A stretch of 57,096 nt of DNA, filler included, from Circinaria calcarea (Eukaryota), in the NCBI GenBank assembly GCA_051942165.1. It is 6 parts of 6 records of this genome, joined end to end, with 100 filler letters (N's around TTAATTAATTAA, not from the genome) between each part and the next. Parts side by side here need not be neighbours in the genome. Positions count along the whole stretch, not along the records: positions 28,627 to 38,050 come from JAVECS010000936.1; 5 more parts are not named here. One strand, 5' to 3'. The notes beneath the pieces are model-generated. The model worked only from the letters and a program-made list of their open reading frames with translations. It was not told the DNA's origin and searched no databases. This document shows, in pieces, positions 9,446 to 48,302 of the stretch (the stretch's first letter is position 1; the number at the start of each line of letters is the position of its first letter). The position numbers were made by a program, and so were the translations under genes.

Positions 9446-9545
9446 NNNNNNNNNNNNNNNNNNNNNNNNNNNNNNNNNNNNNNNNNNNNTTAATTAATTA
9501 ANNNNNNNNNNNNNNNNNNNNNNNNNNNNNNNNNNNNNNNNNNNN
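9446..9545. other. Artificial contig linker (N-TTAATTAATTAA-N)
   Basis: 100-nt spacer carrying a 12-mer that places stops in all frames. The identical spacer recurs five times. Confidence 0.97.
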
Positions 9546-18987: not shown

Positions 18988-19087
18988 NNNNNNNNNNNNN
19001 NNNNNNNNNNNNNNNNNNNNNNNNNNNNNNNTTAATTAATTAANNNNNNNNNNNNNNNNNNNNNNNNNNNNNNNNNNNNNNNNNNNN
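18988..19087. other. Artificial contig linker
   Basis: N-TTAATTAATTAA-N spacer. Confidence 0.97.
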
Positions 19088-28526: not shown

Positions 28527-28626
28527 NNNNNNNNNNNNNNNNNNNNNNNNNNNNNNNNNNNNNNNNNNNNTTAATTAATTAANNNNNNNNNNNNNNNNNN
28601 NNNNNNNNNNNNNNNNNNNNNNNNNN
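28527..28626. other. Artificial contig linker
   Basis: N-TTAATTAATTAA-N spacer. Confidence 0.97.
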
Positions 28627-28634
28627 TCCCAAAC

Positions 28635-31600
28635 CTAGATATAAAACATCGTATTCTTCAAATTCGGATGAATCAGCACATCCTCTGCCCTCGGCTCCCC
28701 TAATACCCCCTCTCCCACTACACTCTGCGCGGGCGTCGCACTCGGCGTCGCCATATCAAACAGCCCACTCAGATAACACCGCGCCCTCTCGCACACAATA
28801 TCTGCATAATACGCCGGCGGGCAAATACTCACCGCCTTGGTCGCACGTCCGAACAGGTAGCACATACTGTGTGTCAGGTCCTCGAGCGCATCCGCGGCGT
28901 TCTGGTGCGGCGGAGCGACCTTGCGCTTGGTGAAGATCTCGTCCAGCACGATGTAGTAGTGGGCTGGGCGCGCCGTACCCTGGATAGCGGCATGGGCTTG
29001 TATGAAGAAGTCCCAGTTGCGGGGCTCGGTGACGCCGCGATCGACGCAGGTGCCGTTTTTGGGGTTGCCGGAGCGATCGGCATCGGCTTCCTTGGTGGGA
29101 TAGAAGCGCGTGTGGTGGCGCTTGCCGACAATGACGATGGTGAATTTTGGAAGCCCCTTTTTGGTGTCGGCGGCCGGGTATACGTTGGCGCAGGCTTTGC
29201 GAATCAGGGGGAGCTCGGTGTCGATGACGATGTCGTATTGCCCTTCGGAGACACCGTCCCGGTAGATGAGGAGGTTTTCGGGGAGGGAAGCGTGTTTGCC
29301 TAGGGTTTTCCAGAGGCTGAGGCGTGAGGCGATCATGCTATCGAGTTCGGTAACCATTTCCTTGCGGGACTCTTGGATACGCAGGTCGGCGGGCCATTGG
29401 CCGAGCCAGCGGTCGACGCTGGCGACGACAGCAGCGACGCTGGGTGCGTTCGGTGCGGATCCGGGAGATGGGTGCGTCACGTCGATACCGATCACCATGG
29501 TTTTCTCTTCGTTGATGATGCCTAGGTTTGTATTGTGAACCAGTTGATTGATGCCGCCTAGCTTCAGGTTGAATTTGAGAGTGACATTGGCGTTATATTG
29601 GTCGTTTTCCTTCACAAATTTTGAACCTACGACGCATATCGTGTGGGTACCGAGCTTAACATCCCCGATGAATTTGACGCGATTGTACAGTTGCCTATCT
29701 GCCCTTGGCAGAACAACGAGTAGGAGTCCGAAAGGGTTTTTCAGATTAGCTTCAAGTGTTGGGTCGTCGGGACTATTAATCGCGACTTCCTTCCCCCTCA
29801 GCGGAGCGGCAGCTGTTATGCCCACATCTTGCAGTGCTTTGTGGAATTTAGCGATAGTGGATTGTAAGCTAGCCAAATTATATTCGTTTGAGCCGCCCAT
29901 AGAAATGATTAGATACGACCACCGGGGTAAGTTGGCTGCAGAGTTGAGCCTGTATTTTTCCATGTTCCAGCTCCCAAATCTGACATTAGCCTGTACCTCC
30001 TTTTTATACCGGACGGATGGGGCTGGCAGGACGCGTCCCAGGACCGTGATCAAATTCGGAGGAATAGAAATACCGAATCGACTCAAAGTGGCATTATCTT
30101 GTGGCAGAAGACCCACTGTCCTGGGACCGTTCATGGTGATGGAGCTAGCATTGTCCCAAGGCTTACGAACGGCGAATCGGATCATCTGCTGCGTCTGGTT
30201 TGGATCAAGCTTTGAATTTGAGTTCTGTCCAGGCATGACGACACAGACCTCTGCCGGCAGATAGCTCGGATTTTCACGATTTCCAACGTTAACAACGGGT
30301 ATGTTAGGGTTCGCTATCACCCTGTTGTGGACTACCTGCAGTGTAAGCAGATCATAGAGTGAAGAGTTGAGTGGATTGTACAGAAGTACGTACCGGTTTT
30401 GAAGAAATCGTAAACGCTTATGTACCTGCCCTGGGAAGTACTTGAACCTGGTTGAGTCGGTATATTTTCAGATGGCCCCCCTTTCTTGCCTTTACCTTTC
30501 TTACCGCTAGATTTACTTGGTTGACCCGTCGCCGTACCAGACACCGCAGACGAGCTTCCAATAGCTTGGGGAGAGTCACTCAGGAAGAACTCTACTTCTT
30601 TTGCATTTGCACCATGCTTTTGCACCCGCGGTGGATGCTCCAGACCATGGCCATCATTCTTGGTAGCTAGTCCAAATATAGTTTTGACTCTCGGGACGAC
30701 CTGACCAGTTCTGTTTGTCTTCTCTTTCAAATGGGTCGTTCTAACTCGGACTCGTTTGATGAAGGACTCTACCTTAAATAGGTTGAAGTGTTGTTCCCGG
30801 CCGTACTTCTCAATCAACTGGTTCAAAGGAATTGGATCATAGAAGGCTCCGTGACTGACGTTGATGTTCACCAAGATACGGCTGGCCGCGACTCGTACGC
30901 TTGAGAAGAATCCTCTGAAAGCAATGAGACCTGCTCCAAGATCCCCTCTATCGGAGCCTTGACCCAAAGCAAAGGCTTTACTGCTTCCGATGGTGGAAAT
31001 CGCAGTAGAGGACTTTGCGTAGTGACCTACCATTATATTTAGAGCCTGAATAATTGGAAGCTTGTTTGAATAAGCCGCATTCACGTTGGTAGAGGTTAGA
31101 AAACCTGTAAGCTCGGCGACAGTGAGAGTTCCCGTGTCTTCAACGTGTACCGTGTAGCTCAATGCATTATCTCGCGGCTCATCTTCACCTTCGACTCGGT
31201 ATTTAATCACAGTTTTCACCTCGCCACTACTGAGCTTCCGGCGAGAGATCAACGTGGATTTGAAATCGGTAACTATATCATCCCGGAAATCTATATATCC
31301 AGGGGCTTCTAACAGCAGTCTTATAATTTGGGTAAGTTTTCTACCCGTCGCAGCTGGTAACACATTAACGTGGTAGCGGTAGAGCACCAGGTTTGGTGCC
31401 GGTAATAATTCGAAATAATTGGTCCACAGCACAACTTTTTGCCCTCTCGTCCCGTAGCCTGGCCGGCGAGGAAAATTATCAGTAAGCCCTAGGCGAGCGG
31501 CATCCAGCGGGCCGCCAGATGAGAGATTCTTCTGGTACAGATCCTCTATTCTTGTAGCCTCGGCATTAGGAGCGGGAATGATGTGACCTGGAGGTCTTGC

Positions 31601-31792
31601 ATGACAAGTTAGCCACCAAGCTTCTGCTGAGTTACCACAGGACACTGACGAATAAACATGCACAGGGCCTCCACCGCGTCCTCCACCTCGCCCGCCTCGA
31701 AAGGATCCATCGCCACCACGACTACTGCCTCGATCGCTACTACCTCTTCCACGATCGCCGCGACCACGACCACCTCGATCTCGTCCTGACAT
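28635..31792 (-). CDS. qde-2: Argonaute, QDE-2-like (RGG N-terminus, N, PAZ, MID, PIWI); introns ~31596-31649 and ~30332-30393
   Basis: RPGYGTRG..WTNYF, GFFSSVR, YLPAEVC, LKFNLKLGGIN, GIDVTHP, IYRDGVSEGQY, KRHHTRF, GTARPAHY, PPAYYADIVCERAR and C-terminal TMFYI. Acidic slicer-site residues are retained. Confidence 0.95.
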
Positions 31793-32440
31793 TGCACTTG
31801 TTATAAATACTCAAGGGAAAGAGTTTGGAAGAGACAAGGTAGGCTCTATGTTTGGAGTATAATCACCCAAATGCTCTGGAAGCAGTACGCTTCGTGTTTG
31901 TGAGTCTCGGCGGCAGCTGGCGGCGTTTGGCTTCCACGAGCGGGGTAATTCTGTGTAACCGTAATAATCGGCTGGGAGCCGATATTATATCGCAGGAGTC
32001 GTCAATGCTCGCACGACTTCTTGTCATATGCATTCCTTCAGCTACTTCATCGATCGAATAGGAAATAGCTGACCGTAACGGATTGGAGAAGCTGGGGTCC
32101 ATACCTCCAACAGCGCTCCCACTGTGGACTCCTTCCCTTTGTCTTTGAGCCTTCGCTAAGGCCCTCTCCCTCCGTTCTTAAAGGTTTCGCCAAGATGCTG
32201 TGACACCGCAAGCTCCCAAACTGGCTATGCTTCGCACTCACTTTCAAACGGAGTTGAGGGTCCTGTATGCTCTCTATCTACTTGTATTTAATACTTGTTA
32301 GCCGAATGTCGCTAACGAATTGCTCCGCAGGAACTATGACTTACCTTCATGCCGGCTCCCCGGCCGTATGCAACATTTGATGCTGTACATCGCTGGATAA
32401 CGACAAACCACCCTTATTTAAATCTATGATATTTCTTTAA

Positions 32441-33106
32441 ATGGCTCATGCAGTCTTACACGCCCCAAACCCAAGGAACATATACATTATTGGCGCTCAA
32501 TCCAGCGGTAAAACCACTTTGATAGCCGCTCTCAAACTTTATTTCGAAGATAAGTCTGAATTGGCCTCAAGAGCTATGACCGCTCAAAAGCCCTATATAC
32601 TAGGAGAGGTCGCACGGCGAGTTCTGCAGGACCATAACTCCACAGGCAAAGACGTATCCGAATCAAAGTCGCGAGCTCTGGAGTTACAAACCTTGATTTT
32701 GGAAGCGCAATACGAAGCAGAAAACGCCATCAAAGACTCCTGGTTTATTTCCGATCGTTCAGGCGTGGACGCTATCGTCTATGGCAAATGCTACGTTGGT
32801 GAGAGTGGCGTGGAGAAACTTTTGGATACCATAGCATGGAAGCATTTGGAAAAGTCCTTGCGGGACTCTCTGATAATTGTCTGCGAGCCCGTAGATGCAT
32901 GGCTTAAGGAGGACGGACTGAGGTTCATGCCCAAAAGCCGCTCGGCGAGGACTAAGCTGGTTTCCTTCATCCACGAGAGGTTTTGTGATTTCCTTAGTAC
33001 TGCTGGTTTTCAGTATGTAGTGCTTCCAAACAATCTACTTGAATTAGGTAGCAGAGTACATTTCGTTATTGGCGAGTGGGAGAAGTTCGGGGAGAAGCTT
33101 GGATAA
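32441..33106 (+). CDS. AAA_28 (NadR/Ttd14-like) P-loop protein, nucleoside/nucleotide kinase fold; intronless
   Basis: IYIIGAQSSGKTTL Walker A, EVARRVL, ISDRSGVDAIVY (DR motif of the dNK/TMPK-like kinases), EDGLRF. Confidence 0.8.
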   Translation: MAHAVLHAPNPRNIYIIGAQSSGKTTLIAALKLYFEDKSELASRAMTAQKPYILGEVARRVLQDHNSTGKDVSESKSRALELQTLILEAQYEAENAIKDSWFISDRSGVDAIVYGKCYVGESGVEKLLDTIAWKHLEKSLRDSLIIVCEPVDAWLKEDGLRFMPKSRSARTKLVSFIHERFCDFLSTAGFQYVVLPNNLLELGSRVHFVIGEWEKFGEKLG

Positions 33107-33693
33107 TTGAGTTATTTACAAGGAAGCAAATACGGAATCAGAATACACTACATCCTACGGCATCTACTACCAAAGGTCTTGCTAGAAGAACAATTTAATC
33201 AGCAGAGAGTCCATACTATTCTTATGAATGTCCATCAAATGCTAGCAAAAACGAATCAAAGGCCCAAGAATGCTACAGCAGGAGAACGACCGGCTGAGCA
33301 GGGAAAGGAACGATTAGACTCGAGGGTTAGCCTGCTGTACAAAACATCACCTTCGTCGGAGAAATCTTAGAACCAGATTGTCCAAGGGAGTGGGACTACA
33401 CCTGTATTCATGTCGTAAGCTACATATTAAACATAGCCAACGAGTCACTTATAGCTTGATGATCCATAAGCCATTCTAATCGTAACTGGTATACTTGCTC
33501 CAGGACACAAGTTGATACACCCGAAATTAAAGAACGCAAAACTTGAAAACAGCCTTTAAATCGACAAAGCCTCCTAGCCCTTGAAACCCAGTTCCTTCGC
33601 ACTCGGTCTTCTAATCCTTCCAATGCTCATCTCAACCCATGGCGTAGCCGTCCAGCGTCGTGGTATAGTTATTCTCACATCGACCATGCAATG

Positions 33694-34704
33694 TCACCAT
33701 TGCAATTCTTTATTTTCGCCAGTTATATACGCAGCGCTGGCTGAACCCTTGCTCCAGTCATATATTCCACCTCTTCTTACAAAACTGTCTTGGTCCCAGT
33801 AAACTTGGGAGAGCGCTGCAAACACACCAATGTCCAGTATCGATGACGAAGGTTTACGTCCATCCCTATCCAAGAATCGCATATATTCATCTAGAATTAG
33901 ATACGATTTTGCCATAAGATTGTTTGGTTCTGCGATGAAACATGATTGGTGCTGATGTCGAAAGCAGAACCGTTGATACTCGTCATCTGTGATCTGGAAT
34001 TTGCGAACATCGCGAAGAGTCTCATCGGAGTCGTTCTCTCCAGCGACAAGAAGAACTTGAAAGCATTTCCATCGAAATGGCTGAAGTCGCTCCACGATCC
34101 CATTCATATCTTCCATGTGATTGAGGCGACATACGACGGTGTTGAGTTTGAACTTGATCCCGAATTCCTTGCACCAATCTGCTACCTGAAACAGTTTCTT
34201 GACCTGGTCTCCGCTGCCTCGCCCGATCTCGATGTTTGTCTGCTCATAGAAGGAATCACAAGAGACAGCTAAAATGTCGATGTGTTTGCCGTACTGCCTC
34301 AAAAAGCTTTTGTCTACTAGACTGCCATTTGTGACGATTGAAACGGACTCGAGACCTAGTTGTTCCTTGGCAAAGGCGACCATGGTTCCAAGAAGCGGCT
34401 TATACAAGAAAGGTTCGCCGCCTGCGAAGTTGATCTTCCTCATACCGGCCGCTTTGAGCAAGGCCAGACCACGTTTCGAGTTCCCTTCTGATTGTTTGTA
34501 TGATGTCGTCGCCGTATGGAAACAGAATCCACAGCTTTTATTACATTGCCGCGTGAAGTGAAAGTTGACCGATACAGGAACGTCTGACCGGAGCCTAGGA
34601 GAAAACCGACGACGGAGGTATCGACTAGTCAGTATAAGGCCAATCGCGATGACGAGAGTAATGAAGGCAGCTGTACTTCCAAGTAGGTACTCTGCGAGGA
34701 CCAT
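33694..34704 (-). CDS. RSAD2: Viperin (radical SAM ddhNTP synthase); intronless
   Basis: SVNFHFTRQCNKSCGFCFHTA (CxxxCxxC), KINFAGGEPFL, SIVTNGSL, AVSCDSF, FKLNTVV, RWKCFQVL, SYLILDEYMRFL, FVRRGGIYDW. N-terminal hydrophobic helix and C-terminal Trp. Confidence 0.96.
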   Translation of the reverse strand: MVLAEYLLGSTAAFITLVIAIGLILTSRYLRRRFSPRLRSDVPVSVNFHFTRQCNKSCGFCFHTATTSYKQSEGNSKRGLALLKAAGMRKINFAGGEPFLYKPLLGTMVAFAKEQLGLESVSIVTNGSLVDKSFLRQYGKHIDILAVSCDSFYEQTNIEIGRGSGDQVKKLFQVADWCKEFGIKFKLNTVVCRLNHMEDMNGIVERLQPFRWKCFQVLLVAGENDSDETLRDVRKFQITDDEYQRFCFRHQHQSCFIAEPNNLMAKSYLILDEYMRFLDRDGRKPSSSILDIGVFAALSQVYWDQDSFVRRGGIYDWSKGSASAAYITGENKELQW

Positions 34705-34902
34705 GTTGACGTTGCTGTTCTAAGAATATTGCGACGCAAAGAAGATCAACGATAATTAAGGATTTGCAACCTCTCTGCACCACTTATGAGCTTTGATCTC
34801 TCTGCCAAAGCGGGGTATCAAGAGTCAGCGCTTTGTGTAACTTCAAAGAATCTTCCCCTGATCGCTGTTAAGATATCCTCCAGAATCATCTGCTGGGTCG
34901 AG
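34705..34902. promoter_or_regulatory. Probable bidirectional promoter shared by viperin and the NMP kinase
   Basis: Only 198 bp separate the two divergent ATGs (34704 on -, 34903 on +). Confidence 0.6.
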
Positions 34903-35671
34903 ATGGATTGGTCAAGCAGTTCTTACTCCCTTGTCTACGTTCTTGGTAAGTGTCAATAACATACTTCATAAAACCAAACTAAACAAAGCCGTAGGAGCGC
35001 CTGGATCGGGGAAAGGGACCATCTGTCATAAGCTTTCACAGGACTATGACTTTCGCCACCTTTCCGTTGGTGACTACATGAGAGAGTTGAGCCGAGATTC
35101 AACTTCCAACAATCGAGAAATCATAGAGGACCATCTACGGCAAGGAAGACTGCTGCCAACACAAGTCATATTACCAATTCTGCACAAGAAAATAGACGAA
35201 GAGAAAGAAAAAGGTCATCACCACTTTCTGATCGACGGGTTCCCAAGGCAGTTGGCGCAAGGTGTTGAGTTCGAGAAGCAGGTTACATTTTCCTACAATG
35301 TATACCAACTCAAAAGCTAATGACTCAATAGATTGGAAGTCCCACACTTGTCATCCTCTTCCAATGTCCCAAAGACATAGCTCAGCAGCGCTACTTAAGT
35401 CGTAGGTTACCAGACAGACTTCTTGATAACGAGGAGATGTTCAAAAAACGATTTGAGGAATTCGATAAAGAGAACTCAAATATTGTGGATTATTACCGAT
35501 CAGCAGGAACGTTAGAAGAGGTTGCAAGCGTTCCTACCACTTATCAAATCGTTTCCATTCTAACAAGCTTAGATCGATTCAAGCAGTGAAACAGAGGTAA
35601 CCTATACAAGATTGCTTGCAACCATAGGAAGAAAATACGAATGGAAAAGTAGAACCAGTCATAGCATCTGA
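34903..35671 (+). CDS. UMP/CMP kinase (adenylate kinase family); exons 34903-34945, 34995-35281, 35332-35520, 35573-35671
   Basis: Spliced product MDWSSSSYSLVYVLGAPGSGKGT..HLSVGDYMRE..FLIDGFPRQLAQ..DNEEMFKKRFEEF..IDSS. Short LID as in UMP/CMP kinases. All three GT..AG introns keep frame. Confidence 0.88.
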
Positions 35672-36027
35672 CCTTATTCTATTGTTAGAAAACTCGTCAT
35701 TCCCAAAGGCTTGTGGGAAATGCTAGATGTTAGAATAGGATCGTAGCAAAGGTTGAAATAGAATTGGATTTTAAAATTCCACGATATCATGTAAACCTAT
35801 GGGTCCTAGCTTGATCACGTGCTAGTCTGCTGCCTTGCCGAAAGCAAGGAGCCATGGGACAATGGTCGGTTTCTCGCGTTTTTCAATCACACTGCAGTGA
35901 CACTTTCCTCAGGCGCGCGAAGCTTCCTTATGCTACACATCACAGAGACATTACATAGCGGTATGTTGAAGCACCACTTGATGACTCCACTAGCATTCAC
36001 TACTGATTCCTACTCGAACCCATTCAG

Positions 36028-36693
36028 ATGAGACCCACAGCCAAACCCCTTTTCCGTCGATTGGTTATTGAAGTTGAGCGGAAGTTCAGGTGTGAACCTG
36101 GATCTATGGATCGCCTTGATGCAAACCAGGGACTGCCTGCCTTTCGAGTCTTGAAATATCTGGGGCGAAGTAGTTTCAAGGACACATACTACGATCGTGA
36201 TGAGACCCTGTCTTCAAATGGAGTATGGGTACGGAAACGTAGCGGACGATGGCAGGCCAAAGTCCGCGAAGGGGGTGATTACGCAAACTCGCAATTCGGA
36301 GAGCTGTCAGAACCGAAGGAGATAGCTCAGATGATCCGGAAATATAATCTTGACGCTTACCCTCCATCAGATGACTTTGGTTTAGAGAAAACCGCACAAT
36401 ATACTACTATCAGGGACGCATGGAAAGCGGATGATAGATTCGAAATCGTCCTTGATACTACCGATTTCGGTCATTCTGTTGGTGAGGTGGAATTACAGCA
36501 AGTAATAGAAACAAACAGTGATGGGGGGCCTCCGATAGCCGTGAGGCAAGATACGGCAAAAGAGATGGATCGCCAAATCGAGGCTTTCATGCAACACTAT
36601 TCATGGGCCTTCCCAACTGGAAAACCTGTGGGGAAACTGTCGGCATATTTTACTTGGAAAAGAGGATCACATTGTCCAAGTTCGCACGGCTGA
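36028..36693 (+). CDS. CYTH / triphosphate tunnel metalloenzyme, thiamine-triphosphatase-like
   Basis: IEVERKF (ExExK), DTYYD, WVRKRSGRWQAK, VLDTTDFGHSVGEVEL, GKLSAYF. Confidence 0.88.
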   Translation: MRPTAKPLFRRLVIEVERKFRCEPGSMDRLDANQGLPAFRVLKYLGRSSFKDTYYDRDETLSSNGVWVRKRSGRWQAKVREGGDYANSQFGELSEPKEIAQMIRKYNLDAYPPSDDFGLEKTAQYTTIRDAWKADDRFEIVLDTTDFGHSVGEVELQQVIETNSDGGPPIAVRQDTAKEMDRQIEAFMQHYSWAFPTGKPVGKLSAYFTWKRGSHCPSSHG

Positions 36694-36849
36694 TTTGCCG
36701 ATGGATCTCAATACCATCCATATGCGAGTCACTATGGTTCGGCAGAGAAGAGACCGACATTAGCGTAAGGGAAAGTGGAGGGGGCGGGGAAAAGAAAGAA
36801 GGGGATACTCATGGCGGTGATAACAGTGTTTTCCATATACGGTTAAGGA

Positions 36850-38050
36850 GATATGTTTTGTGTAATTAAAACTATGCGTTATAGCTCAAGGTCTTTAAAG
36901 TATTGGTATCGTATCAGTTGCATATTGTGTTTCTTGTGTGTTCTCTTATGCTTTTTTGGTTTATCTTTCCTGTTAAATTATGTTTTTTTAGAACGCTCTG
37001 GCGAGAGTAGTTTTCTGAGTCTAGCCCTTTATAATTATACTCTATTCATGCATTATTTAATATCCTATCTCATGCTCTGCTTCATGCTCTGCTTCATACT
37101 CTGCTTCATGCTCTGCTTCATGCTCTGCGCCACACCATGCACCATATTTATATTATACTCCATGCCATACTCCATGCTATATGCTATGCACCACGCACTA
37201 TGCGCTATAATCATGCTATTATAATATATCAGAATAATAGCCTATGATCGTAATGTATTAAAGTAATTAAAGTAGCTAAAATAGTTGATCGTTGAAGCGG
37301 TACTACTAAATAAGCTATTCATGGAGGGGGGTGCTGCTAATTACTAGCTATTTACGACCCCGAGTTGTTAAGTGAGACGTGTAGCTAGGACATATGCTAA
37401 ATTGGCCAATCGATTAATAGCTAGCTAAATAAGCTGATTGCTAATTAATTAATGTTAAAAGCTTATTTATTTATTGCTTCACAGCATAAATACCTCTAAT
37501 AGAGACCGCACGCCGTCGAGCTTGCTGATAGAATAGGTGGTGAAAGGTTGCTCCGGTATAAGTTATAAATTAATAAAGAATAATAATATAAAGGTCGCCA
37601 ATATTTAACTGCTTCACGATATTTTTTTTATATTTTTAAATAAAAAAAAATCTTCTGCCTAATACTAGAGTCTAGGATTTTATTTAAATAAATAAATTAT
37701 ATAAACAGCTCGCCGTTGATTTTAAGAAATATATTTTTATTTTTTATTTTTCTATCTGCCGGTCCCTCTAATAAAATAATTTCTATAATTAATATATTTA
37801 TCTCGGTAGGCTTTTCTTTTCGGAATACTTTTTCGTGTTGAGGAGATAAGCCGAGTTTTTAATATATATCGAAAAAATTTATTAATTATTGGCATTATAT
37901 TATGTTTTATATAATTAATTTTTTTTTTCGAATTATTTTTAAAGCACGTAAAGATCGGTTTAACGGAAAAAAAAATTTAATTATAATATTATCGTCCCGT
38001 GCGCCGGCCTGTAGAATTATAATATATTTATTAATTATAATAATAAAATT
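36850..38050. mobile_element. AT-rich, RIP-like degenerate repeat/transposon DNA
   Basis: Abrupt shift to very AT- and TpA-rich sequence with no credible ORF, running to the contig end. Confidence 0.55.
37071..37130. repeat. 12-bp tandem repeat (CATGCTCTGCTT)x5, with degenerate copies to ~37215
   Basis: Units read directly at 37071, 37083, 37095, 37107 and 37119. Confidence 0.9.
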
Positions 38051-38150
38051 NNNNNNNNNNNNNNNNNNNNNNNNNNNNNNNNNNNNNNNNNNNNTTAATT
38101 AATTAANNNNNNNNNNNNNNNNNNNNNNNNNNNNNNNNNNNNNNNNNNNN
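38051..38150. other. Artificial contig linker
   Basis: N-TTAATTAATTAA-N spacer. Confidence 0.97.
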
Positions 38151-38185
38151 AATTTCCATAGTGCGTGGAGAATGTATATGATATC

Positions 38186-38326
38186 CTAGAGTTTTATATA
38201 TATAGTATTAGCATCAATTATTGCTTAATAGCGTGCTTGTATTGATTTAATAAGTCACGTAAATACTTTTCTGTGACAAAATCCCAGGCCTCCCTCACTG
38301 CTCTTCTTAACGGTGGAAGCTCCATT
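38186..38326 (-). mobile_element. Tc1/mariner transposase C-terminal relic
   Basis: LRRAVREAWDFVTEKYLRDLL followed, after a frameshift, by AIIDAN..IKL*. This matches the L..AV.EAW..I....L..LI.SM..RC.AVIDANG..TKY tail of Tc1-type DDE transposases. Confidence 0.6.
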
Positions 38327-39469
38327 ACTAGAAAAATAAGGGTGAGCAGAGTAGTAATTAAATAGGCAGCATAGCGCGCAGCATAAAAGTGCGTAAAACA
38401 CTGGACGCGTAAATTAAGAAGGAGCTCTGTCAAGCTACTGAGTCACTACAATGCATCGATACTGAATGAGAGAATGACTGCCAATGCCACCGTGTATTGT
38501 GTGTGTGTATGTTCTGCTATGCTGCAAGCAATGCAGCACGAGTAACTAACTATGTACGCGTGTGTGGGCGCTAGGATAATCGTAGGCCCGAGGAGCTAAC
38601 CGCAAAGGTTTAACAAGCTCAGAATTGTAACGATATTTTCGGCAGGGGATTTAGTGCCACGCTAGCAATAAAGATGCCTATATACCAATACTGCGGTCGC
38701 ATGGGAAATAAACCCTAGCTCGGCGCTAGTAGATCAATGCCTAATTTAGTTAAACTCCAGAAAGCTTTATTATTTACTTTTAGTATTCCGTATGCATACC
38801 ATTTAAACCAATCAGAAAAGGAAATGGAGTTACAATACCTGAAAATTTCAATAGTCTGAGCAGGGATTTTAATGATTTTAGCGCCGAGCTGTCGTTTGTT
38901 TCTCATGTGACGCCTATTCTAGCTAGCGCCTTCGCTTCGCCGTTTGCGGAGATCGGCAGAAGAAAGTGGACCCGGCAGACCAAGAGGGTGCGTTCCTGGT
39001 CAAGCTAGCCTAGCACGCACCAGGAGCTGGGTTGGCAGGGTTCGGTCTGCCAGAGCAACAGCTTTAGGGATAGTTGAGTTTCCTTCATTTTGAGCCTCCC
39101 TTTGTCTTGAGCATGCGTAATTCAGTCAATCAGATGGAGCAAATATGCACGTCGGTTTGCCAAGCAACCCTTTGACCGTGGGGGGCATCGCGCAGTAGAA
39201 GACTATTCATGGAGATCAAGAAGTAGTATGATCAATCCGGCCAACGTGGGTTTGTACCAACTGTTTCAAGAAAGGTCAATACATGACTTCACTCCTGAAT
39301 AGGAGACCAGCAAGATTGCACCCCTCCCGGACGCGGATAACCATGGCTGGAAGCTGAGCTGCAGATACCTAGGTAGGAGAAACAGGACGGGAGACACACT
39401 TTATTGGGAGTCTGGAACCAATCCTGGTTTTATCCCCTCCCCAGCCTGATTGCGCTCCCACGCACTTTC

Positions 39470-40252
39470 AGTGAGGTTACGACTTCAATCGTGGACTTCC
39501 CGCAGCTTGACGAACACAATGGTGAACACGACTTTAATGATGAGACTTCGATGATGGGGTGTGAAAAATTACCAAATTATAGTATAAATTATATTAGAAA
39601 ACGATAGAGCTCCATAGTCTCAAGATAATTCCCAGCGAAAAAAAATTATGACCTTTATAAATTTGAATTATCATATTGCATTCCTATCTAATCTATAATA
39701 AATACATCGCGATTTCTGTCAAGGCAAACGGTCGTATTGTACACGTTATGATCTATTTTCGCTAGAATCCACCTGCCTCCTTGCGCCCTTATCTATAGAT
39801 GGAGTATAGATGATGTAGATAAAAACGAGTATACGCGCAATAGTGTCCAGGTGGGGAATTTCACTAGAATTAGGTTTAAATCCCATTGACGCTTGCTTTT
39901 GGCGGCCTGGTGGTTTTCAAGTCCCGTTTTCTTTAGGTGCGCGTATGAGGAGATAGCTGGAGAGGAGATTTTTCGTTTATCGCGATACAATATAGAATTA
40001 TACTGTACGCTGATAGAAATATCTGTAATATTTTGTACCCCATCATCGAAGTCTTACCATTGAAGTCGTGTTCACCGTCTTAATCGCCAAGCTGCGGGAA
40101 GTTCATTATTGAAGTCGTGCTGGTCCACAAGCATATCAGTCGTTAGTGAGCTTGGCAAAACAGGGTATGTTTCAAGTGTAGTGACCAATAAGATCCCCGG
40201 TATCAGCAGATCGTACTAACGACTGATATGCTTGTCGACCAGTAACCTCACT
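39470..40252. mobile_element. Non-coding element with nested inverted repeats (MITE-like)
   Basis: Outer IR AGTGAGGTTAC/GTAACCTCACT (39470-39480, 40242-40252). A ~95-bp imperfect IR (39479-~39573 vs ~40025-40118). A 28-bp IR with 27/28 match (40120-40147 vs 40215-40242). Confidence 0.6.
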
Positions 40253-41592
40253 TTCAGCAGGTACTAAAATAGTAAATCTGATCTGCATGACTGTTTCCAT
40301 AGCGGGTCTTAAGTTAACTCCTGTATGCAGGTGATTGACCACGATTGACCTTGTCAAATATGCATCGTTTCTATGGTAGAGATTGGACCGTGCCTATCAG
40401 CAGCACTGCGCTCCTAGACCCAGTCTACTTTCCTACACACACCAGCGGGGAATATCGGATGGTTATTCCCAAGGACAGGCTTACCACATGCTTGATCCCC
40501 ACAAACCACGGCTAATTTCTCCGGGTTTATAACCAAACCTCCGGCACAATTGAGTGTCACAACGGAGCCTCTCTCGCGACATCAGAACGTTTCTCTCTCC
40601 CAAAGACCAGCTGCGTCACCTCAATCATGATAGCTTGCGAAGCTACAGAAGGGCGAATAAACAATGCTCTTTGAAAACAGATTCCTATAGAAAATGATAT
40701 ACACATTGACAAAGCATGGTCATATTCTGCGGGGGAATAGGAGCCCGGAATTATTCGATCCTAGAGTCGACTTCGGACAAAATGCCAATATACTATCGGC
40801 GAGTAGGAGTACCGGCGAGCGAAAGGCTTTCGCCTCGAGTAAGTCGGGATGAGGTTGGCCTCCCCGGTCGTCATATCAGAGGTCTTCGATCAGGGCCAGA
40901 AAGCCCAGGTCGGCCAACTGTCGCTCTTTGGCCTACCCTCCAGGCCCGTTTGTGTAAGATCTGTCTTCCGCTTGGGGACATTGAACGTCGCTTCATAGCC
41001 TTGCCCTAAGTACGTCAACGCTCTCTTATGCTTCCTAAAATCTACTATCCGTTTCTCCCCTTGCTTCCATATGGTCACATTGGTTATCTGCCGTATAAGG
41101 TTCCTATCCTAGGTGTTGTTATCATAATGGTTGATGATGTGTTGAGATCCTATTCGATGCTACCCTCCTTATTGCGTTCGAGCTGCATAATGGAGGGTAC
41201 TGATGTGCATCCTCCTTCGATATTCCTAGCGTGGTTGCTCACCGGCCAGCACTTCGACCAGCCATAGGCCACATGTCGAATTAGTTTGGCCCGTTGAACT
41301 CCTGGTCTGTGGGGCTACCAAATTCTTCCCATGTCTGGCCAGCAGGTTGACTTTCCTAGGTGTGGGTCAGAGCACAATTCCTCATCTCGTCTTCCTAGTT
41401 TTTAATCCGCCTTTGCGTCCTGATGTAGCCTCTCTGTCCTTCACGTGTACTGGGTTTGGCCGACCTCTGACACTGCTTTTTCTGCTCTATACCGATGTCC
41501 TAAATTAATATCCTACTTTCTGGCCGTCACGTGATTGACGTCTCTATTACCTTCAAATTACTGGAGACTTTTCTTCCGTAGATATTAGGGGC

Positions 41593-43353
41593 ATGTTTAT
41601 GTACCACATTACATCTTCCAACGCATCTTCGGATTCTACGGTCAATAGCGTTGACCAAAGCAGGGAGACTCCTGCTCGCTTCGTTATCTTGGCTGGTGTA
41701 GCCATCGCCTTTGCTATTGTTATTATCCTTATTTCAAGCGCTACTATTTTTTACCTTTACACAGAGAGACATCGGTACGGCAAGGAATCAATGCACCCGC
41801 TTCGAGAGGCCGGCGGCCATGAACCTATCGGCAGTATGCCCTGGGATGGCTCTGACCAGTATTCAGCCTTTGATTACCATGGCGATAGCACATGGCCATC
41901 TGCTGAAACCACCACAAATACATTCCCTACGCCGGCTACAAATGATGATACACTCAGCTATGGACCACCGACTGAGATAGCCACCGGAACCTTGGACATA
42001 GACTCGCAACGTTATGACTCCGATATTCTTGCATATTTACAGCTCTTTCCCAAACCAGGAGCCTCAGTCGGAGCCGCCCCTGAGTCGTGGGAAGTTGACG
42101 CAATTGGATCAGGGATTGGCAGTCCCAACTCATCTTCAGGTGGATATCTTCTAAGTACCGCTTCGGGTCCTGCTCATCGTGTACCTCAAATCTATCCTGG
42201 TTCTCTGAATTCAGAAACGGAGTCCTCGAGTTACCAGTCAAGAATAGCTACTGAGTCGCCTCAGATTGTATACTCTCGACTTGACCTAGATAAACCTTTG
42301 CCGCTTGAGCCAGGACAGGGATACCCAAAACCGAGGATATTGCAGAAATCACAGGGATACTCAAGCAACGGTCGCCGACCACCCATCCCAGACTTGACGC
42401 TTGATTCCTCTTTCTTTGGTCTCACTGGCCGTTCACATGTAGAGGAAGCGTATTCGGGAAAACAACAGCCAAGCCTATCAGAACTACCACCGACTTCTGC
42501 AGTCTCGGCGTTTACGTCTCCCCAACCGTTCTCACCCCCATTCCAATTCGGAATTACGCAGAACGAACCGTCAAGTTTTTCCCAGTCCCATCCGCCCCGA
42601 CCAGTACATATCACAACTGCTGCCAAAAACTATCCTGTCGGGAGTCAACGCTACATTACACATCGGACATCCTCTTCTGCAAGTAGGTCACCCTTTCCTC
42701 TAGGTCTGCCAGATGTCAACCTCAGTTCAATACTGACCCATCAGAACCTCCCTTACTGACGCCCGCAGCAACATCGGAACCTACAACTGAGCGTTTTGGG
42801 CACTCTCCCGACTTTTGGCCTAATACCTACCCTTTGATGACAGCAACAGCCTCATCTCCAAGCATTTACAGCCCTGACATCTCATCCGACGGCGCTTATG
42901 ATCAAGCACAGTAAGTATTCCTAATCTTCCACGAAATGCAAATGAACGCAACTCATACAGCCTACTAAGTTTGATAGATATTTTGATGATACCGCCAAAC
43001 AAACCGGATTGCATGCTATGACAGGGCTCACTCAAACCAACACTTTTCCAACCCGGAGCCAGACGCTTGAGCAGTATTCGCCACCATCGAGAAAACGTAC
43101 GCGTTCAGTACAAGACAACGCGTCCGAATCTACCATTTGCCCGGAGCCCGATTGTGGTGTTTCCATCCGACAGGGAAGATCTAAATCTACCAACCTCAAA
43201 CGGCACATCAAAGAGAAGCATTCAAAGCAACCCAAGCGATATCACTGCGAATCATGCGGCCGAGGTTTCTCTCGTAAACACTACACAGAAACGACCCACC
43301 AAATGACATGTTTATCGAGGATCTGGTCGCTGAGTGTAGGAAGCTCGAAGTAG
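41593..43353 (+). CDS. Putative single-TM, Ser/Pro-rich protein with C-terminal C2H2 fingers; the join near 42680-42720 is uncertain
   Basis: TM segment FVILAGVAIAFAIVIILISSATIFYLY. Fingers CPEPDC..NLKRHIKEKH and CESCGRGFSRKHYTETTH. A GT..AG intron at ~42911-42977 links the 42700-42910 open frame to the finger exon. Confidence 0.5.
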
Positions 43354-45835
43354 TGCTAGAGTAAAATCACAGACAGGATATCCTTGCCACTGGAATGATA
43401 ACGATCTCTCCTGCGCTGGATCATGTGTACGATTCCACCGGATGGACCCCCTGAGCTCGGGAGCTTATCAGAGAGAGTCAAGCTTGGCACTTTCTCTTCA
43501 CAGGAAGCCGGTCTTTTTCATTTCTATTCCATCTTCAATCAGTCTTACTCGAACTGGCTACCATACCGACGATTAATGAACACTTGAGAGTACCAACGCT
43601 GATAAGTATTTCCTTCGGCGGGGGTGTGTTCGCATTTGATGACTATCTATGCAAGACTCACCTTGTCTACATATCACCCTCGTTAACTTTATCAATACGA
43701 TGGTATCTTACACGGATGCTCACCGCCGCATAGCTATGCTCTGATGTATATCTCCACGACTTTGTGACCCTGAGATATGGGTTCAAGCTCTTATGCATGA
43801 ACCCGTATTGTCACATCCCTACCCCTTTCTTCGCCATTCTTCTCCACTCCCATTCCTCCCATCCCCTCCCGGTCTTCTGTCCCAAATCCCTTCTCGCCCC
43901 ACCCGTCTCCCTTCTCCTCCCTTCCTTTTCATCTCCCCCTACACTCACCCACCGACTCCTTGTCCAATTTCCCTAATGTCTACACCAGCTCCTCCCCCCT
44001 AAGCCATCGCACCTGAGTTTGACAGATAGATCTTCATAGACAGGAGTAGAATAAAGGATTGTCGGAGAGTGGGTGAGTAGTATGAATGGTCACAGAGTAA
44101 ATGTCTAAAGCAGTTCTAGTCCGATGGCTGGGACTACTACAATTGGGGGCGGAAATTGCTCCGATTAGTGGTTTCCTTGGAGGGGCGGGGTGCAGTAGAG
44201 CAAGGGTACGGAGTACAAGTGGTTCGGAGCGCTTCACGCTGACTTGTCAACTTTGGGGGGAGGAGGGGTTGATTGGATCGCAATCAAAGCTTACGGCGGT
44301 CGTTTGTTGAAATGAAGCGAGTTCAGGGAATCTAGAACGTGGAAGGTTCTGGTTTCGTCATGCGGCTCTACTGTATGGTACACATAAGGGCTTTTGCCCA
44401 GAAGTGTCCTTCAGCAGTTTGCGCCAATCTTAGTATAGGTACTCATATTCATTGCCTGTCCAGCGCTATACTTTCAACGGCAGTTGTTTAGGGAGTAGGG
44501 AGCCTCAGCCTTTACTCAATCTGTTCTAGCCTCGCTGAGCTTTTCCGAGTCCATCGGACCCCTGCCACAAGGCTGAGCTGTTGAGCTGGTCAAACCCCCA
44601 TTGCTTGTTGGTCTGAGCATCCTTCACGGGCAGTTTCCATCTATCGATTGGGGGGTTTGGAATGGACGTTTCAGAATCACTGCTTTAGAATGGCTACCAA
44701 TGCTGTTGGAGAGAGAAGAAGCCAGATGAATCCAACACGGGCGGCATATCCTGCGGAGTGTAGGGCTTATGGTAGGCCGATAGCTGGGCCACAACTCTGG
44801 CCGGAGTGCATGAGCTGAAAGGTTTGCAATCCTCTGCACTGCATACTCATCTCTCAGCTCTCCAAACATGCCGAACTCAGATTCAACATTGTATGGGGCG
44901 GGAAAGCGACACCACTATCATCCGTACCATGTTGGTCCCCGTCAAACGTGGCGTTGATTCCATCCTTCCTCAACTGCCGCCAAGCCCAAAACCCTGACCG
45001 TACTTCTCCGGCTCTCGGTTTTTAGATGGTGGCTTATTCTACAGAGTGTGGATGGATTACTTTTGTCATCTGGGGACATGTCGACGTAGGAATACCGGGC
45101 AGTTTGGCTCAGTGTGCCCAAAGCCTGGTATGAGGTTGGAGGGGTCCTTCTTTTTGCGAACCTTGCACTCCGACCAAGTCGCGGCTGAAGTCCAGCGGAG
45201 ACGTATGCTACAATGGTTTAGAGAAAACGTAAATAAAGGGGGCTGAGTTTGATCGCCGCGTGAATTCCTCCAGAGACCAGCAAATGCGTTCGGTTGGATT
45301 CCCGCCTCGAGGACACTCCAAGAGGCGTAGGCTCATTCATTGAAATCTTACGGCAGCCAAATAACGGAGTGAGATATCACTATTATCCCTTCAGATGAAT
45401 GCCCAGAGCGGCATTGAGAGATGGACCAACATTCTTGGCGTTGGTAGCGCTAGCTGAAGAACATATTCTCCATACTTTCTATCCGTCGAACGGCTCTCGC
45501 ATCCTTGAGGGTTTCTCACCCCCCTAGTCTATTGACAGGCATCTAGTCTCCTAACCGAACTGTCAACCTGCCGCTCTAACATCGACAAACACAACAATGT
45601 GGCCGTGGATGGCACAGTTTTCTGCGCACTTGCCTGAGATTCCTTCCGGCAGCTCTGTCCTTCTGAAATCTAAAGAAAGGGGGCCCTACGTCCGGTATTC
45701 GGTTGGTTATAGTATAAAGGCATCTATTCTTCCCACGATTTTCTTCTCATTATCAAAACCAACCCTTCTCATAGCCTATACAACCTATTCACACCTACAC
45801 CAAGTCAAATTGAACCGATTCTGGCAATCGCTACC

Positions 45836-46732
45836 ATGTCTAGCCTCAAGATCTCAACCCTCTTTTCCTTATCTCTTCTTCTAGCACTCGTTGCTTATAC
45901 GGCTGTTTCTTCAGCCAACGACCACAGCATCATTGCCCGCGATGCTGATCCCCTAGAACACACCTTAGCGATCCGAGCTCTTGTCGACGAACTTATCGCT
46001 AGAGATTTCGAAGAGCGCGATTTTGAAGAGAGGGACTTTGAGGAAAGAGACTTTGAGGAAAGAGACTTTGAAGAAAGAGACTTTGAAGAAAGAGACTTTG
46101 AGGAAAGGGACTTTGAGGAAAGAGATCTTGAGGAAAGGGACTTTGAGGAGAGGGACTTTGAGGAGAGAGACTTTGAGGAGAGGGACTTTGAAGAACGTGA
46201 CTTTGAAGAGAGAAGCGCTCGAATCCTCCGGTCCGGATTTGGAGCCCCATCTTCGCGTGGATCCAGGCTGGACTTTGCCGGAAATGTGTTGGCTGCTGGA
46301 GGAAGTGTAGCTGGAGCCGTCCTTCCCCGCGATGCGAAAAGAGGCGGGAGCAGAGGCAAAGGAGCAGGCCGAGCTCCTCCACGCGGATCCAGGCTTGATT
46401 TTGCTGGACAGGCACTTTCTGCTGCAGGAGACGTAACTGGAGCTGCCCTTTCCCAACAAAAGCGCGATGCGAAAAGAGGCGGGAGCAGAGGCAAAGGAGC
46501 AGGCCGAGCTCCTCCACGCGGATCCAGACTTGACTTTGCTGGACAGGCACTTTCTACTGCAGGAGACGTAGCTGGAGCTGCCCTCTCCCAACAAAAGCGC
46601 GATGCGAAAAGAGGCGGGCGCGGAGGCAGAGGGGGAGGCCGAGCCCCTTCACGTGGATCTAAACTCGACTTCGCCGGGAATGCGCTTAGTGCTGGAGGAG
46701 AAGTTGCTGGAGCCCTTACCTCGCAACTATGA
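45836..46732 (+). CDS. Secreted Kex2-processed repeat protein (KEP) / peptide precursor
   Basis: Signal peptide, (D[F/L]EER)x14, then four GS[R/K]LDFAG[N/Q]xLxxxGxVxGAxL units separated by (K)RDAKR. Confidence 0.85.
   Translation: MSSLKISTLFSLSLLLALVAYTAVSSANDHSIIARDADPLEHTLAIRALVDELIARDFEERDFEERDFEERDFEERDFEERDFEERDFEERDFEERDLEERDFEERDFEERDFEERDFEERDFEERSARILRSGFGAPSSRGSRLDFAGNVLAAGGSVAGAVLPRDAKRGGSRGKGAGRAPPRGSRLDFAGQALSAAGDVTGAALSQQKRDAKRGGSRGKGAGRAPPRGSRLDFAGQALSTAGDVAGAALSQQKRDAKRGGRGGRGGGRAPSRGSKLDFAGNALSAGGEVAGALTSQL
46004..46213 (+). repeat. 15-bp coding tandem repeat x14 (DFEER)
   Basis: 210 nt = 14 units. Variation is almost entirely synonymous, with a single DLEER. Confidence 0.95.
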
Positions 46733-47574
46733 AGACATGATCTCTAAACTAGAGGTACTCGACGGGGAATAGTTTGTTCGGCTCGGCTTGGGCGTTGTCT
46801 TTGTTTGAGGCAGCCAGGGTATAACCAATTGGGCAAGCTCGTATCGGTTATGAGGTGGATTTGCTGGGGTTGCGCTTGAGTTGTCCTCCATTTGGTCTAT
46901 GATGTTTCTGCGTGCCTTGCTTTTTTGTTTCCTCTTCTCCTTGCGTAGAGATTGAGTTTTGTGCGATAGTCTCTCATTTTGTTTAGCTCACTTGAGAATT
47001 CACTTTTTCTGCGGAACACTTATCAACCTCAAGTGAATGGATAAGAGAGAACAGCAATGGAGTCTGATCAATATCCATGCAGTGAATCTAAATACTTCAG
47101 AGTTATTGCGTACCAAACATCCAATTCATGAAAGGGTCCTCGGTGGATACCAATTTTTGCAAGTCACTCCTTGGCTCCTGACGAGAGATATTCTTCCCTG
47201 TCCTTTAATAAAGGTACTAGGTCTGGAGAGACTCTGGAAACCTATTCCAGGCTATCAGTTCAGCGTAAGTGTATGCAAGCGGTCCCCCTAAATCAGCCTG
47301 TACCTCCCTAGATTACTGCCCTGTAGCCCACTAGCCGTAGGCTCTAGAACCAATCGACCGTCTATTTCAGTCAACCCCCGCATCGCGTAAATTCGCGTCG
47401 TGCCTAAAACCCCCCCTTCTCCCTAAAACCCAAACTCAAAACCCACAAAACGCCCTTCTCGATGACAACCACCAACACCTCCATTCCCACTCCAACCGCG
47501 GACCCGCCTCGACCCTCTACACCACCACCACCACCACCTCCTTCCTCCTCAACCTCCAACCCCATTGTTCACCC

Positions 47575-47674
47575 NNNNNNNNNNNNNNNNNNNNNNNNNN
47601 NNNNNNNNNNNNNNNNNNTTAATTAATTAANNNNNNNNNNNNNNNNNNNNNNNNNNNNNNNNNNNNNNNNNNNN
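47575..47674. other. Artificial contig linker
   Basis: N-TTAATTAATTAA-N spacer. Confidence 0.95.
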
Positions 47675-48302
47675 GTGGAGGGAGATGGGGAGGCCATGGG
47701 TTTATGGTATGGGAGGATTGAACGTGGGGGAATGTGAGGGTATTGTGAAAGGGAAGAAGTGGGAGTTTGTATTATGGTGGAGCTATGGGTGGTTGTCAAT
47801 GTTAGTACATTTGAAGTTGAAGTTGGAATCTTTTACACGTGCTTTCGACATCATAATGGAGCAGCCAAGACAATTTCTACAGCCTCACTGGGAGGTATCT
47901 TCATTAGCGAAAATTAAAATCCTACTCCATATAATACCTTTACCAGAAAAATTCACTCTACCAGTTCAGAACAATTGGGATGAATGAAGAGGATTGCAAG
48001 AAGCACATGTCCCAGCTAGCAGAAACCAGAAACGGAAACATGCTCGAAAAACAGGTAACCAGTTCATCAATCTCATCATCACTACGAAACAGCAAGACTA
48101 TATAATAGGGAGTTTCACCATTGTAGCACCCCTGCTTGGGTATCGCTGCCTTTGACCTTTATCCATGTGGAAGCCCCAAGATACCCTATGTGTGGAAACC
48201 AGCTCCAGTTTAATTCACTTCTAGAATAGATACACCTCTGAAAAATGTACACCCCTAAAAAGAGATACCTAACCCCCCCAAATGAAAATGCTGAAATTAT
48301 CT

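Follow-up and report, generated by a model that had tools for sequence, protein, structure and literature searches.

A Viperin Gene Linked to UMP/CMP Kinase and CYTH Enzyme Genes: A Probable Nucleotide-Modification Cluster in the Fungus Circinaria calcarea

The stretch of DNA analysed here (hereafter the window) comprises 57,096 bases from a draft assembly of Circinaria calcarea (GCA_051942165.1), in which six contigs of 9,445 to 9,422 bases are placed end to end, longest first. Five artificial linkers of the form N44-TTAATTAATTAA-N44 (9446-9545, 18988-19087, 28527-28626, 38051-38150, and 47575-47674) mark the contig boundaries, and therefore features that lie across any linker lack physical linkage. 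The subject of this report, a viperin gene with four neighbors, lies wholly on the fourth piece (28627-38050; JAVECS010000936.1), which is a single physical contig of 9,424 bases. Stop-to-stop open reading frames (ORFs) together with Pfam matches give the gene order Argonaute (minus strand), AAA_28 (plus), viperin (minus), UMP/CMP kinase (plus), and CYTH (plus). All five genes are without a broken frame, and the gaps that separate them measure ~200-650 bases. A preliminary description of this locus had proposed five intact genes with this order, these orientations, and these coordinates, and the ORFs and Pfam matches bear it out. It had also held that nothing else lies between the genes. Consistent with this, no further domain-bearing ORF was seen, with the small intergenic ORFs (e.g., 31863-32177) falling outside the Pfam scan.

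Few immune enzymes are common to bacteria, archaea, fungi, and animals, and viperin is among them; it makes a nucleotide that acts as a natural antiviral chain terminator. The viperin gene on this contig (33694..34704, minus strand) is a single exon encoding a 336-amino-acid member of the radical S-adenosylmethionine (SAM) family of synthases that make 3′-deoxy-3′,4′-didehydro (ddh) nucleoside triphosphates, and it matches Pfam Radical_SAM with 56.2 bits. The protein begins with a hydrophobic helix and carries a radical SAM core whose CxxxCxxC motif is present as CNKSCGFC. Residues C54, C58, C61, and W336 are invariant across 26 fungal viperins. Similarity to the family is full-length and above the family cut-off, as NCBIfam NF038283 (viperin_w_prok) is matched with 245.9 bits against a cut-off of 180, and the solved fungal viperin-like enzyme 7n7i aligns over residues 34-335 (E value 3e-135). 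The animal-tuned model TIGR04278 gives a score of 357.8, which is under its cut-off of 450. The viperins of Trichoderma virens and of an Aspergillus are described as making mainly ddhUTP and some ddhCTP (Shomar et al., bioRxiv 10.1101/2023.09.13.557418). By analogy, the main product of the C. calcarea enzyme is probably ddhUTP.

The extreme C terminus of this viperin (33697-33705) reads Leu-Gln-Trp; among the same 26 proteins, the Trp never varies and the Leu is conserved to at least 90%. According to a preprint, a [LIM]-[DES]-[WF] tail serves as a signal for the cytosolic iron-sulfur assembly machinery. The Leu-Gln-Trp ending is close to this tail, but its middle position falls outside the pattern.

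Head to head with the viperin gene is a CMPK1/URA6-type UMP/CMP kinase gene (34903..35671, plus strand), whose four exons (34903-34945, 34995-35281, 35332-35520, and 35573-35671) encode 205 amino acids. The Pfam ADK match spans both main exons, and the protein has the P-loop (GAPGSGKGT), NMP-binding, and LID regions of the ADK family, with closest similarity to UMP/CMP kinases. Its best solved match is yeast uridylate kinase (1uky; E value 4e-22), and its top NCBIfam match is UMP_CMP_kin_fam, which is below cut-off with one exon as the query. The spliced model aligns with the kinases of four of the metagenome loci described below (L001, L002, L026, and L039), and the last exon is supported because this alignment reaches residue ~200.

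The viperin and kinase genes are separated by 198 bases (34705..34902) that we annotate as a bidirectional promoter region. The head-to-head arrangement recurs at every metagenome locus with an upstream kinase (18 of 18, from 27 loci that have at least 1.5 kb of upstream sequence), and therefore a bidirectional promoter appears to be conserved. A search for a promoter motif found no 6-, 7-, or 8-mer shared among 24 viperin-kinase intergenic regions above the level of 100 shuffles. Identity among the viperin-linked kinases is low (27-50%), and their sequences hint that the linked kinase is a fast-evolving paralogue distinct from housekeeping URA6.

Beyond the kinase lies a single-exon gene (36028..36693, plus strand) for a 221-amino-acid CYTH/triphosphate-tunnel enzyme of the thiamine-triphosphatase (THTPA) type, which matches Pfam CYTH with 25.8 bits against a cut-off of 23.2. 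Comparison by sequence with human and mouse thiamine triphosphatase (ThTPase) gives an E value of 8e-13. An AlphaFold2 (AF2) model of the protein (pLDDT 91.4) matches ThTPase by Foldseek with an E value of 1.9e-13, a TM-score of 0.63-0.77, and 24-28% identity, and the modeled fold also matches other triphosphate tunnel metalloenzymes (TTMs). The ExExK motif typical of the CYTH/TTM fold (E15, E17, and K19) is invariant in 36 fungal homologues. In addition, Tyr39, Trp53, and Lys65 of ThTPase, which mark the THTPA subfamily, each align to an identical residue of the fungal protein. Within the fungal CYTH family, Y54 and K78 are invariant and W67 is at least 90% conserved. A review of thiamine triphosphate (PMC8615392) describes Tyr39 and Lys65 of ThTPase as a catalytic dyad and Trp53 as a specificity residue. 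Given the conserved ExExK motif and the equivalents of these three residues, the CYTH protein looks catalytically competent. Its closest named relative among the matches listed is from Diploschistes diacapsis (70% identical).

The AAA_28 gene (32441..33106, plus strand) is likewise a single exon for 221 amino acids and encodes a NadR/Ttd14-type P-loop protein (Pfam AAA_28, 82.7 bits) with the Walker A sequence GAQSSGKTT. As a single sequence, the protein found no match among solved structures. A profile of 34 homologues matches the ribosylnicotinamide kinase (RNK) domain of NadR (6gye; E value 1.7e-7). Moreover, Foldseek searches with an AF2 model (pLDDT 89.5) place NadR, the AbmG nucleoside kinase, thymidylate kinases, and deoxyadenosine kinase at the top (TMq ~0.6), at 12-20% identity to the solved kinases. 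The protein thus combines a Walker A motif with a nucleoside/nucleotide-kinase fold, and is best read as a predicted nucleoside or nucleotide kinase. The family is small, with 82 database matches that are mostly ascomycete, and the closest named relative among the matches listed is from Icmadophila ericetorum (76% identical). Like D. diacapsis for CYTH, this is a lichen-forming lecanoromycete, and the protein matches alone would suggest that the contig probably comes from a fungus of that class.

The remaining gene, at the left-hand end of the contig, encodes a QDE-2-type Argonaute of ~1013 amino acids (28635..31792, minus strand). Its three exons (31792-31650, 31595-30394, and 30331-28635, stop codon included) were chosen by eye for frame, which yields 1013 amino acids with one terminal stop. 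The protein has an RGG-rich N terminus and, in an intact frame, the N, L1, PAZ, L2, MID, and PIWI architecture expected of this type. Pfam ArgoN, ArgoL1, ArgoL2, and Piwi score above their cut-offs, PAZ scores 25.8, just under its cut-off of 28.8, and the best solved relative is the MID-PIWI portion of Neurospora crassa QDE-2 (2yhb; E value 1.8e-102). A divergent intergenic region of 648 bases (31793..32440) separates this gene from AAA_28. Because the Argonaute stop codon is 8 bases from the contig end, its left-hand neighbor is beyond the reach of the contig.

The conservation of this arrangement was assessed by scanning metagenome contigs with a fungal viperin alignment, which yielded 80 loci, each with flanking sequence of up to 10 kb; 66 of them are distinct at 95% nucleotide identity. 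Neighboring genes were sought by tblastn with the window proteins and by profiles built from database homologues. Most of these loci are too short to judge. When the survey is restricted to the 20 distinct loci that extend at least 2 kb to each side of viperin, 16 carry the kinase, 16 carry CYTH, 13 carry both, and 19 carry at least one of the two, while AAA_28 occurs at one and Argonaute at none. For the 12 loci that extend at least 5 kb to each side, the corresponding counts are 11 (kinase), 10 (CYTH), 9 (both), 12 (either), 0 (AAA_28), and 0 (Argonaute). The presence of both partners within 10 kb of viperin at 13 of 20 independent loci is far beyond chance. The co-occurrence that the preliminary description proposed to score at fungal viperin loci therefore holds for the kinase and CYTH, is seen once for AAA_28, and fails for Argonaute.

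An all-against-all clustering of ORFs within 8 kb of viperin at 21 loci provides a similar picture, with the kinase and CYTH families at 17 loci each and any other family at four or fewer. Those minor families whose coordinates were inspected are alternative frames over viperin or CYTH. The loci that carry the trio have best named viperin matches that are Dothideomycetes-like, Sordariomycetes-like, or Eurotiomycetes-like. The CYTH gene may be located beyond the kinase on the upstream side or directly downstream of viperin, and on either strand. Because it shifts position and strand yet stays adjacent, its linkage suggests selection rather than frozen synteny.

Named genomes agree with the metagenome loci, apart from four exceptions described below. 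Locus tags and accessions place viperin and CYTH no more than two gene positions apart in 13 of the 17 genomes in which both positions are visible. These are Arthroderma sp. PD_2, four Xylographa species, Aspergillus coremiiformis, Parastagonospora nodorum SN15 (SNOG_07908/07910), Glonium stellatum, Melanomma pulvis-pyrius, Amniculicola lignicola, Phaeosphaeriaceae sp. PMI808, and two Monosporascus genomes. Viperin, the UMP/CMP kinase, and CYTH form a conserved physical cluster across Lecanoromycetes, Eurotiomycetes, Dothideomycetes, and Sordariomycetes.

A further locus, L081, holds the three genes arranged as they are in the window. Its viperin is 71% identical to that of C. calcarea, its kinase appears as two matches, as if split by an intron, and its CYTH is THTPA-like. 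A Pfam PF01928 search of the whole L081 record missed this CYTH gene, which tblastn and the profile had found, and negative whole-record Pfam searches are therefore weak. The record itself is a single contig of 6.65 Mb that is filed as an actinobacterial metagenome-assembled genome, yet what it contains looks fungal. A eukaryotic chromosome may have been deposited under a bacterial name.

AAA_28 is a recurrent but optional fourth member of the cluster. In A. coremiiformis, three consecutive accessions (KAE8353773, -774, and -775) correspond to CYTH, AAA_28, and viperin, and AAA_28 adjoins CYTH in both Endocarpon pusillum (EPUS_07751/07752) and D. diacapsis (LQ340_006507/6508). The metagenome loci that carry AAA_28 are L024 and L015. 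A gene model of 405 amino acids from Alternaria panax (P0091) contains Radical_SAM and AAA_28 domains together. This model could be a genuine fusion of viperin with AAA_28, or the annotation may have merged neighboring genes; in either case it supports adjacency of the two genes in a dothideomycete.

These independent occurrences also bear on the integrity of the contig itself. The assembly is fragmented into contigs of ~9 kb, and the junction between Argonaute and AAA_28 has no independent support, as might be the case if the five-gene arrangement were a chimeric product of assembly. Short pieces from relatives were recovered from sequencing run X1, which shares 0.11 of words, and from two runs of the same study; they are mostly less than 90% alike, and none bridges two genes, the Argonaute-AAA_28 junction included. 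However, four of the five genes adjoin one another in independent genomes and metagenomes, and both N runs and breaks in composition are absent within 28627-38050. A chimera is thus very improbable.

The same survey separates Argonaute from the other genes. Viperin and RNA interference (RNAi) pathways are both antiviral in other organisms, and on this contig an intact, QDE-2-like Argonaute shares its 648-base divergent intergenic region with AAA_28. It might therefore be supposed that selection has kept all five genes together as a single antiviral island in which ddh-nucleotide synthesis is coupled to RNAi, and the preliminary description had indeed proposed a physical link to RNAi. That link is not conserved. 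Argonaute is near viperin at none of the 80 metagenome loci, including none of the 20 distinct loci with usable flanks, and the adjacency is seen on this contig only. Locus L024 carries AAA_28 but no Argonaute, and no independent sequence bridges the Argonaute-AAA_28 junction. Furthermore, Argonaute is absent from L081, whose entire 6.65-Mb record matches neither the window Argonaute nor Pfam Piwi (a control search for Piwi was positive in 2 of 14 genomes). We consider a five-gene island to be highly unlikely. Instead, the Argonaute looks like an ordinary QDE-2-type RNAi gene that is a chance neighbor of the cluster in this lineage.

We conclude that the contig probably carries an intact fungal viperin nucleotide-modification cluster, made up of a core trio of viperin, UMP/CMP kinase, and CYTH and an optional AAA_28 gene, with Argonaute as a bystander. 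Several observations weigh against this conclusion. Viperin and CYTH are on different contigs in Polytolypa hystricis, in two Trichoderma gamsii strains, and in T. harzianum CBS 226.95. The best-studied fungal viperin comes from Trichoderma, and CYTH is present in that genus but unlinked, such that the cluster is broken up there. Four of the 20 well-flanked metagenome loci are without CYTH and four are without the kinase, and AAA_28 is rare (2 of the 66 distinct loci). Among the 153 neighboring ORFs of 110-300 amino acids within 3 kb of viperin at 79 prokaryotic loci, a Pfam scan of 150 found no CYTH gene, with larger ORFs and three of mid size left unscanned. Finally, the fungal CYTH protein retains the Trp that confers thiamine specificity on mammalian ThTPase, and so might be a true ThTPase.

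This last point raises the question of whether CYTH has anything to do with viperin. It could be a plain fungal orthologue of animal thiamine triphosphatase with an unrelated role, whose adjacency to viperin is inherited synteny. The best matches by both sequence and fold are human and mouse ThTPase, the equivalents of Trp53, Tyr39, and Lys65 are conserved, and in Trichoderma and Polytolypa the gene persists apart from viperin. Inherited synteny, however, fits poorly with an adjacency that has persisted across four fungal classes although the gene has repeatedly changed position and strand. In addition, 26 of the 120 listed CYTH homologues pair with a listed viperin when judged by an indirect assembly proxy compared by eye. 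The thiamine triphosphate review (PMC8615392) states that fungi have so far yielded no specific ThTPase, and the text of Shomar et al. mentions four viperins fused to a "triphosphatase or cyclase" domain. An ordinary ThTPase unconnected with viperin is thus distinctly unlikely. That ddh-nucleotides are the substrate of the CYTH enzyme is plausible, if somewhat short of probable.

The analysis shows which families these genes belong to, that they are intact, and that their linkage is conserved, whereas all substrates, co-regulation, and the antiviral role in fungi are inferred. In the pathway that we propose, AAA_28 would phosphorylate a pyrimidine nucleoside, or a salvaged ddh-nucleoside, to the monophosphate. 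The UMP/CMP kinase, given its family, would then form the diphosphate, and a housekeeping nucleoside diphosphate kinase would complete the synthesis of UTP or CTP. By analogy with the two other fungal viperins noted above, viperin would convert UTP and CTP into ddhUTP and some ddhCTP, which would act as RNA chain terminators. The CYTH enzyme may then act on the ddh-nucleotide, or on a triphosphate closely related to it, by removing the γ-phosphate, a step that we regard as having nearly the same chance of being right as wrong. Such a step would limit self-poisoning and cap the pool of chain terminator able to hit host polymerases, or it would begin conversion to the ddh-nucleoside. Human mitochondrial RNA polymerase reportedly misincorporates ddhCTP, to go by the title of one paper, and a turnover enzyme is therefore plausible. 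The preliminary description had read the locus as coupling substrate supply, synthesis, and turnover. With the families, the linkage, and the AAA_28 fold now in hand, that reading fits four of the five genes and leaves Argonaute outside.

An alternative is that the same genes serve a different end. Fungi typically cluster their secondary-metabolite genes, and the locus could be a small cluster of this kind whose product is an antimetabolite, a ddh-nucleoside directed against competitors or hosts, rather than a cell-autonomous antiviral defense. The kinases would feed viperin, and CYTH would start the dephosphorylation that leads to an exportable nucleoside. At this locus, a nucleoside-modifying enzyme is accompanied by kinase and phosphohydrolase genes, and the cordycepin cluster, which the locus resembles, has steps of both types as well. 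The cluster has a patchy distribution, and its partner genes are evolving more rapidly than viperin itself, with identities at the same loci of 27-50% for the kinase and 24-58% for CYTH compared to 47-75% for viperin. Moreover, judging by paper titles, ddh-nucleosides are said to be excreted in animals. On the other hand, no recurrent transporter, regulator, or other tailoring gene is present within 8 kb, and the hydrophobic N-terminal anchor of the viperin is like that of the animal antiviral enzyme. TTM enzymes also usually take off the γ-phosphate only, and further phosphatases would be needed to reach a nucleoside. We therefore consider an antimetabolite cluster to be unlikely, and we favor a viperin cluster that makes and controls ddh-nucleotides.

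To our knowledge, the only viperin partner recognised so far is a kinase that supplies substrate. That CYTH stays next to viperin in four fungal classes, joined in some lineages by a second kinase, suggests that ddh-nucleotides are regulated or processed further. The cluster is also a well-supported eukaryotic case of selection holding related immune or metabolic genes together. We know of no settled physiological role for the ThTPases, and linkage to viperin offers a candidate function for this enigmatic family. We speculate that the eukaryotic viperin pathway includes ddh-nucleotide triphosphatases that have so far been missed, and that these are CYTH enzymes of the THTPA family. They would serve as a built-in off-switch or self-protection, or as the first step toward ddh-nucleosides, and would be coupled in some fungi to a NadR-type kinase that re-phosphorylates nucleosides. 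We hold this broader idea to be doubtful but worth stating, because if it is true then the long-puzzling THTPA of animals could act on viperin products too.

Part of this arrangement has been described previously. Shomar et al. (bioRxiv 10.1101/2023.09.13.557418) report fungal viperins with a linked CMPK1-type kinase, which is the same adjacency of viperin and UMP/CMP kinase as on this contig. The preliminary description knew of no earlier account of the five-gene arrangement, but the novelty is narrower than this suggests, since the viperin-kinase linkage is published and the CYTH and AAA_28 partners are what appears to be undescribed. In their main text, those authors score kinases alone as neighbors, whereas here CYTH is as frequent a partner and AAA_28 is a recurrent fourth. 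The words phosphatase, hydrolase, Argonaute, and AAA are absent from that main text, and supplementary tables 5 and 6 may list such neighbors. Viperin neighbors are not discussed in the available text of Culbertson and Levin (PMC10732462). A literature search found no paper linking viperin to CYTH, thiamine triphosphatase, or the triphosphate tunnel; the co-mentions were judged unrelated from titles and the starts of abstracts, and subscription papers (e.g., on fungal viperin structures) were outside this search. Thus, CYTH as a third conserved partner and a kinase-fold AAA_28 gene as a recurrent fourth are apparently new.

Comparison with known systems reveals both parallels and distinctions. 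As far as the sources on it describe, the vertebrate pair RSAD2 (viperin) and CMPK2 likewise places a substrate-feeding kinase next to viperin in a functional linkage within eukaryotes. However, the vertebrate pair involves CMPK2 and ddhCTP and has no described linked triphosphatase or nucleoside kinase, whereas the kinase on this contig is of the CMPK1 type and the viperin product is probably ddhUTP. The 25-kDa mammalian THTPA (PDB 3bhd, 3tvl, and 5a64) has the same CYTH/TTM fold, the ExExK motif, and the residues Tyr39, Trp53, and Lys65 whose equivalents are seen here. In contrast to the mammalian enzyme, fungal CYTH is physically tied to viperin in most genomes. By both profile and fold, the AAA_28 protein belongs to the same class of P-loop nucleoside kinases as the NadR RNK domain and AbmG (PDB 6gye and 8j5f/8j5g; TMq 0.60), but it is a stand-alone fungal protein of 221 amino acids with 12-20% identity to such kinases. 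A further parallel is provided by TTM1 and TTM2 of Arabidopsis (PDB 7z67), which, as reviewed in PMC8615392, join a uridine-kinase-like domain to CYTH, with TTM1 tied to pathogen resistance. These plant proteins differ in being fusions, in having no viperin, and in preferring pyrophosphatase over triphosphatase activity (PMC8615392).

Some prokaryotic viperins (pVip) also have a neighboring kinase, in that a thymidylate-kinase-like gene is beside viperin at 9 of the 79 prokaryotic loci. The fungal CYTH and AAA_28 profiles find no match at any of these 79 loci. No CYTH was found among the neighboring ORFs scanned at these loci, and its partnership with viperin therefore appears to have arisen in fungi, or at any rate in eukaryotes. 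Histidine phosphatase genes (His_Phos_1) are located within 3 kb of four prokaryotic viperins (L111:9035-9652, L123:9228-9812, L135:9200-9808, and L156:6928-7596). A histidine phosphatase may be a convergent phosphatase partner of bacterial viperin.

Outside the five genes, the contig ends in an AT-rich non-coding tail of 1.36 kb (36694..38050; G+C fraction ~0.38), which contains a 12-base tandem repeat of 4.9 copies at 37070-37128. Contigs from a rock-metagenome run give many rearranged, loose-ended matches at 37070-37128 and at ~37150-37190, and the region therefore looks like a variable low-complexity repeat. The other five contigs (1-28526 and 38151-57096) carry ordinary fungal genes, which encode a PXA domain, a helicase C-terminal domain, a PGAP1 glycosylphosphatidylinositol (GPI)-inositol deacylase, a Myb-like domain, and a TRF telomere-repeat-binding domain, along with several long ORFs that have no Pfam match.

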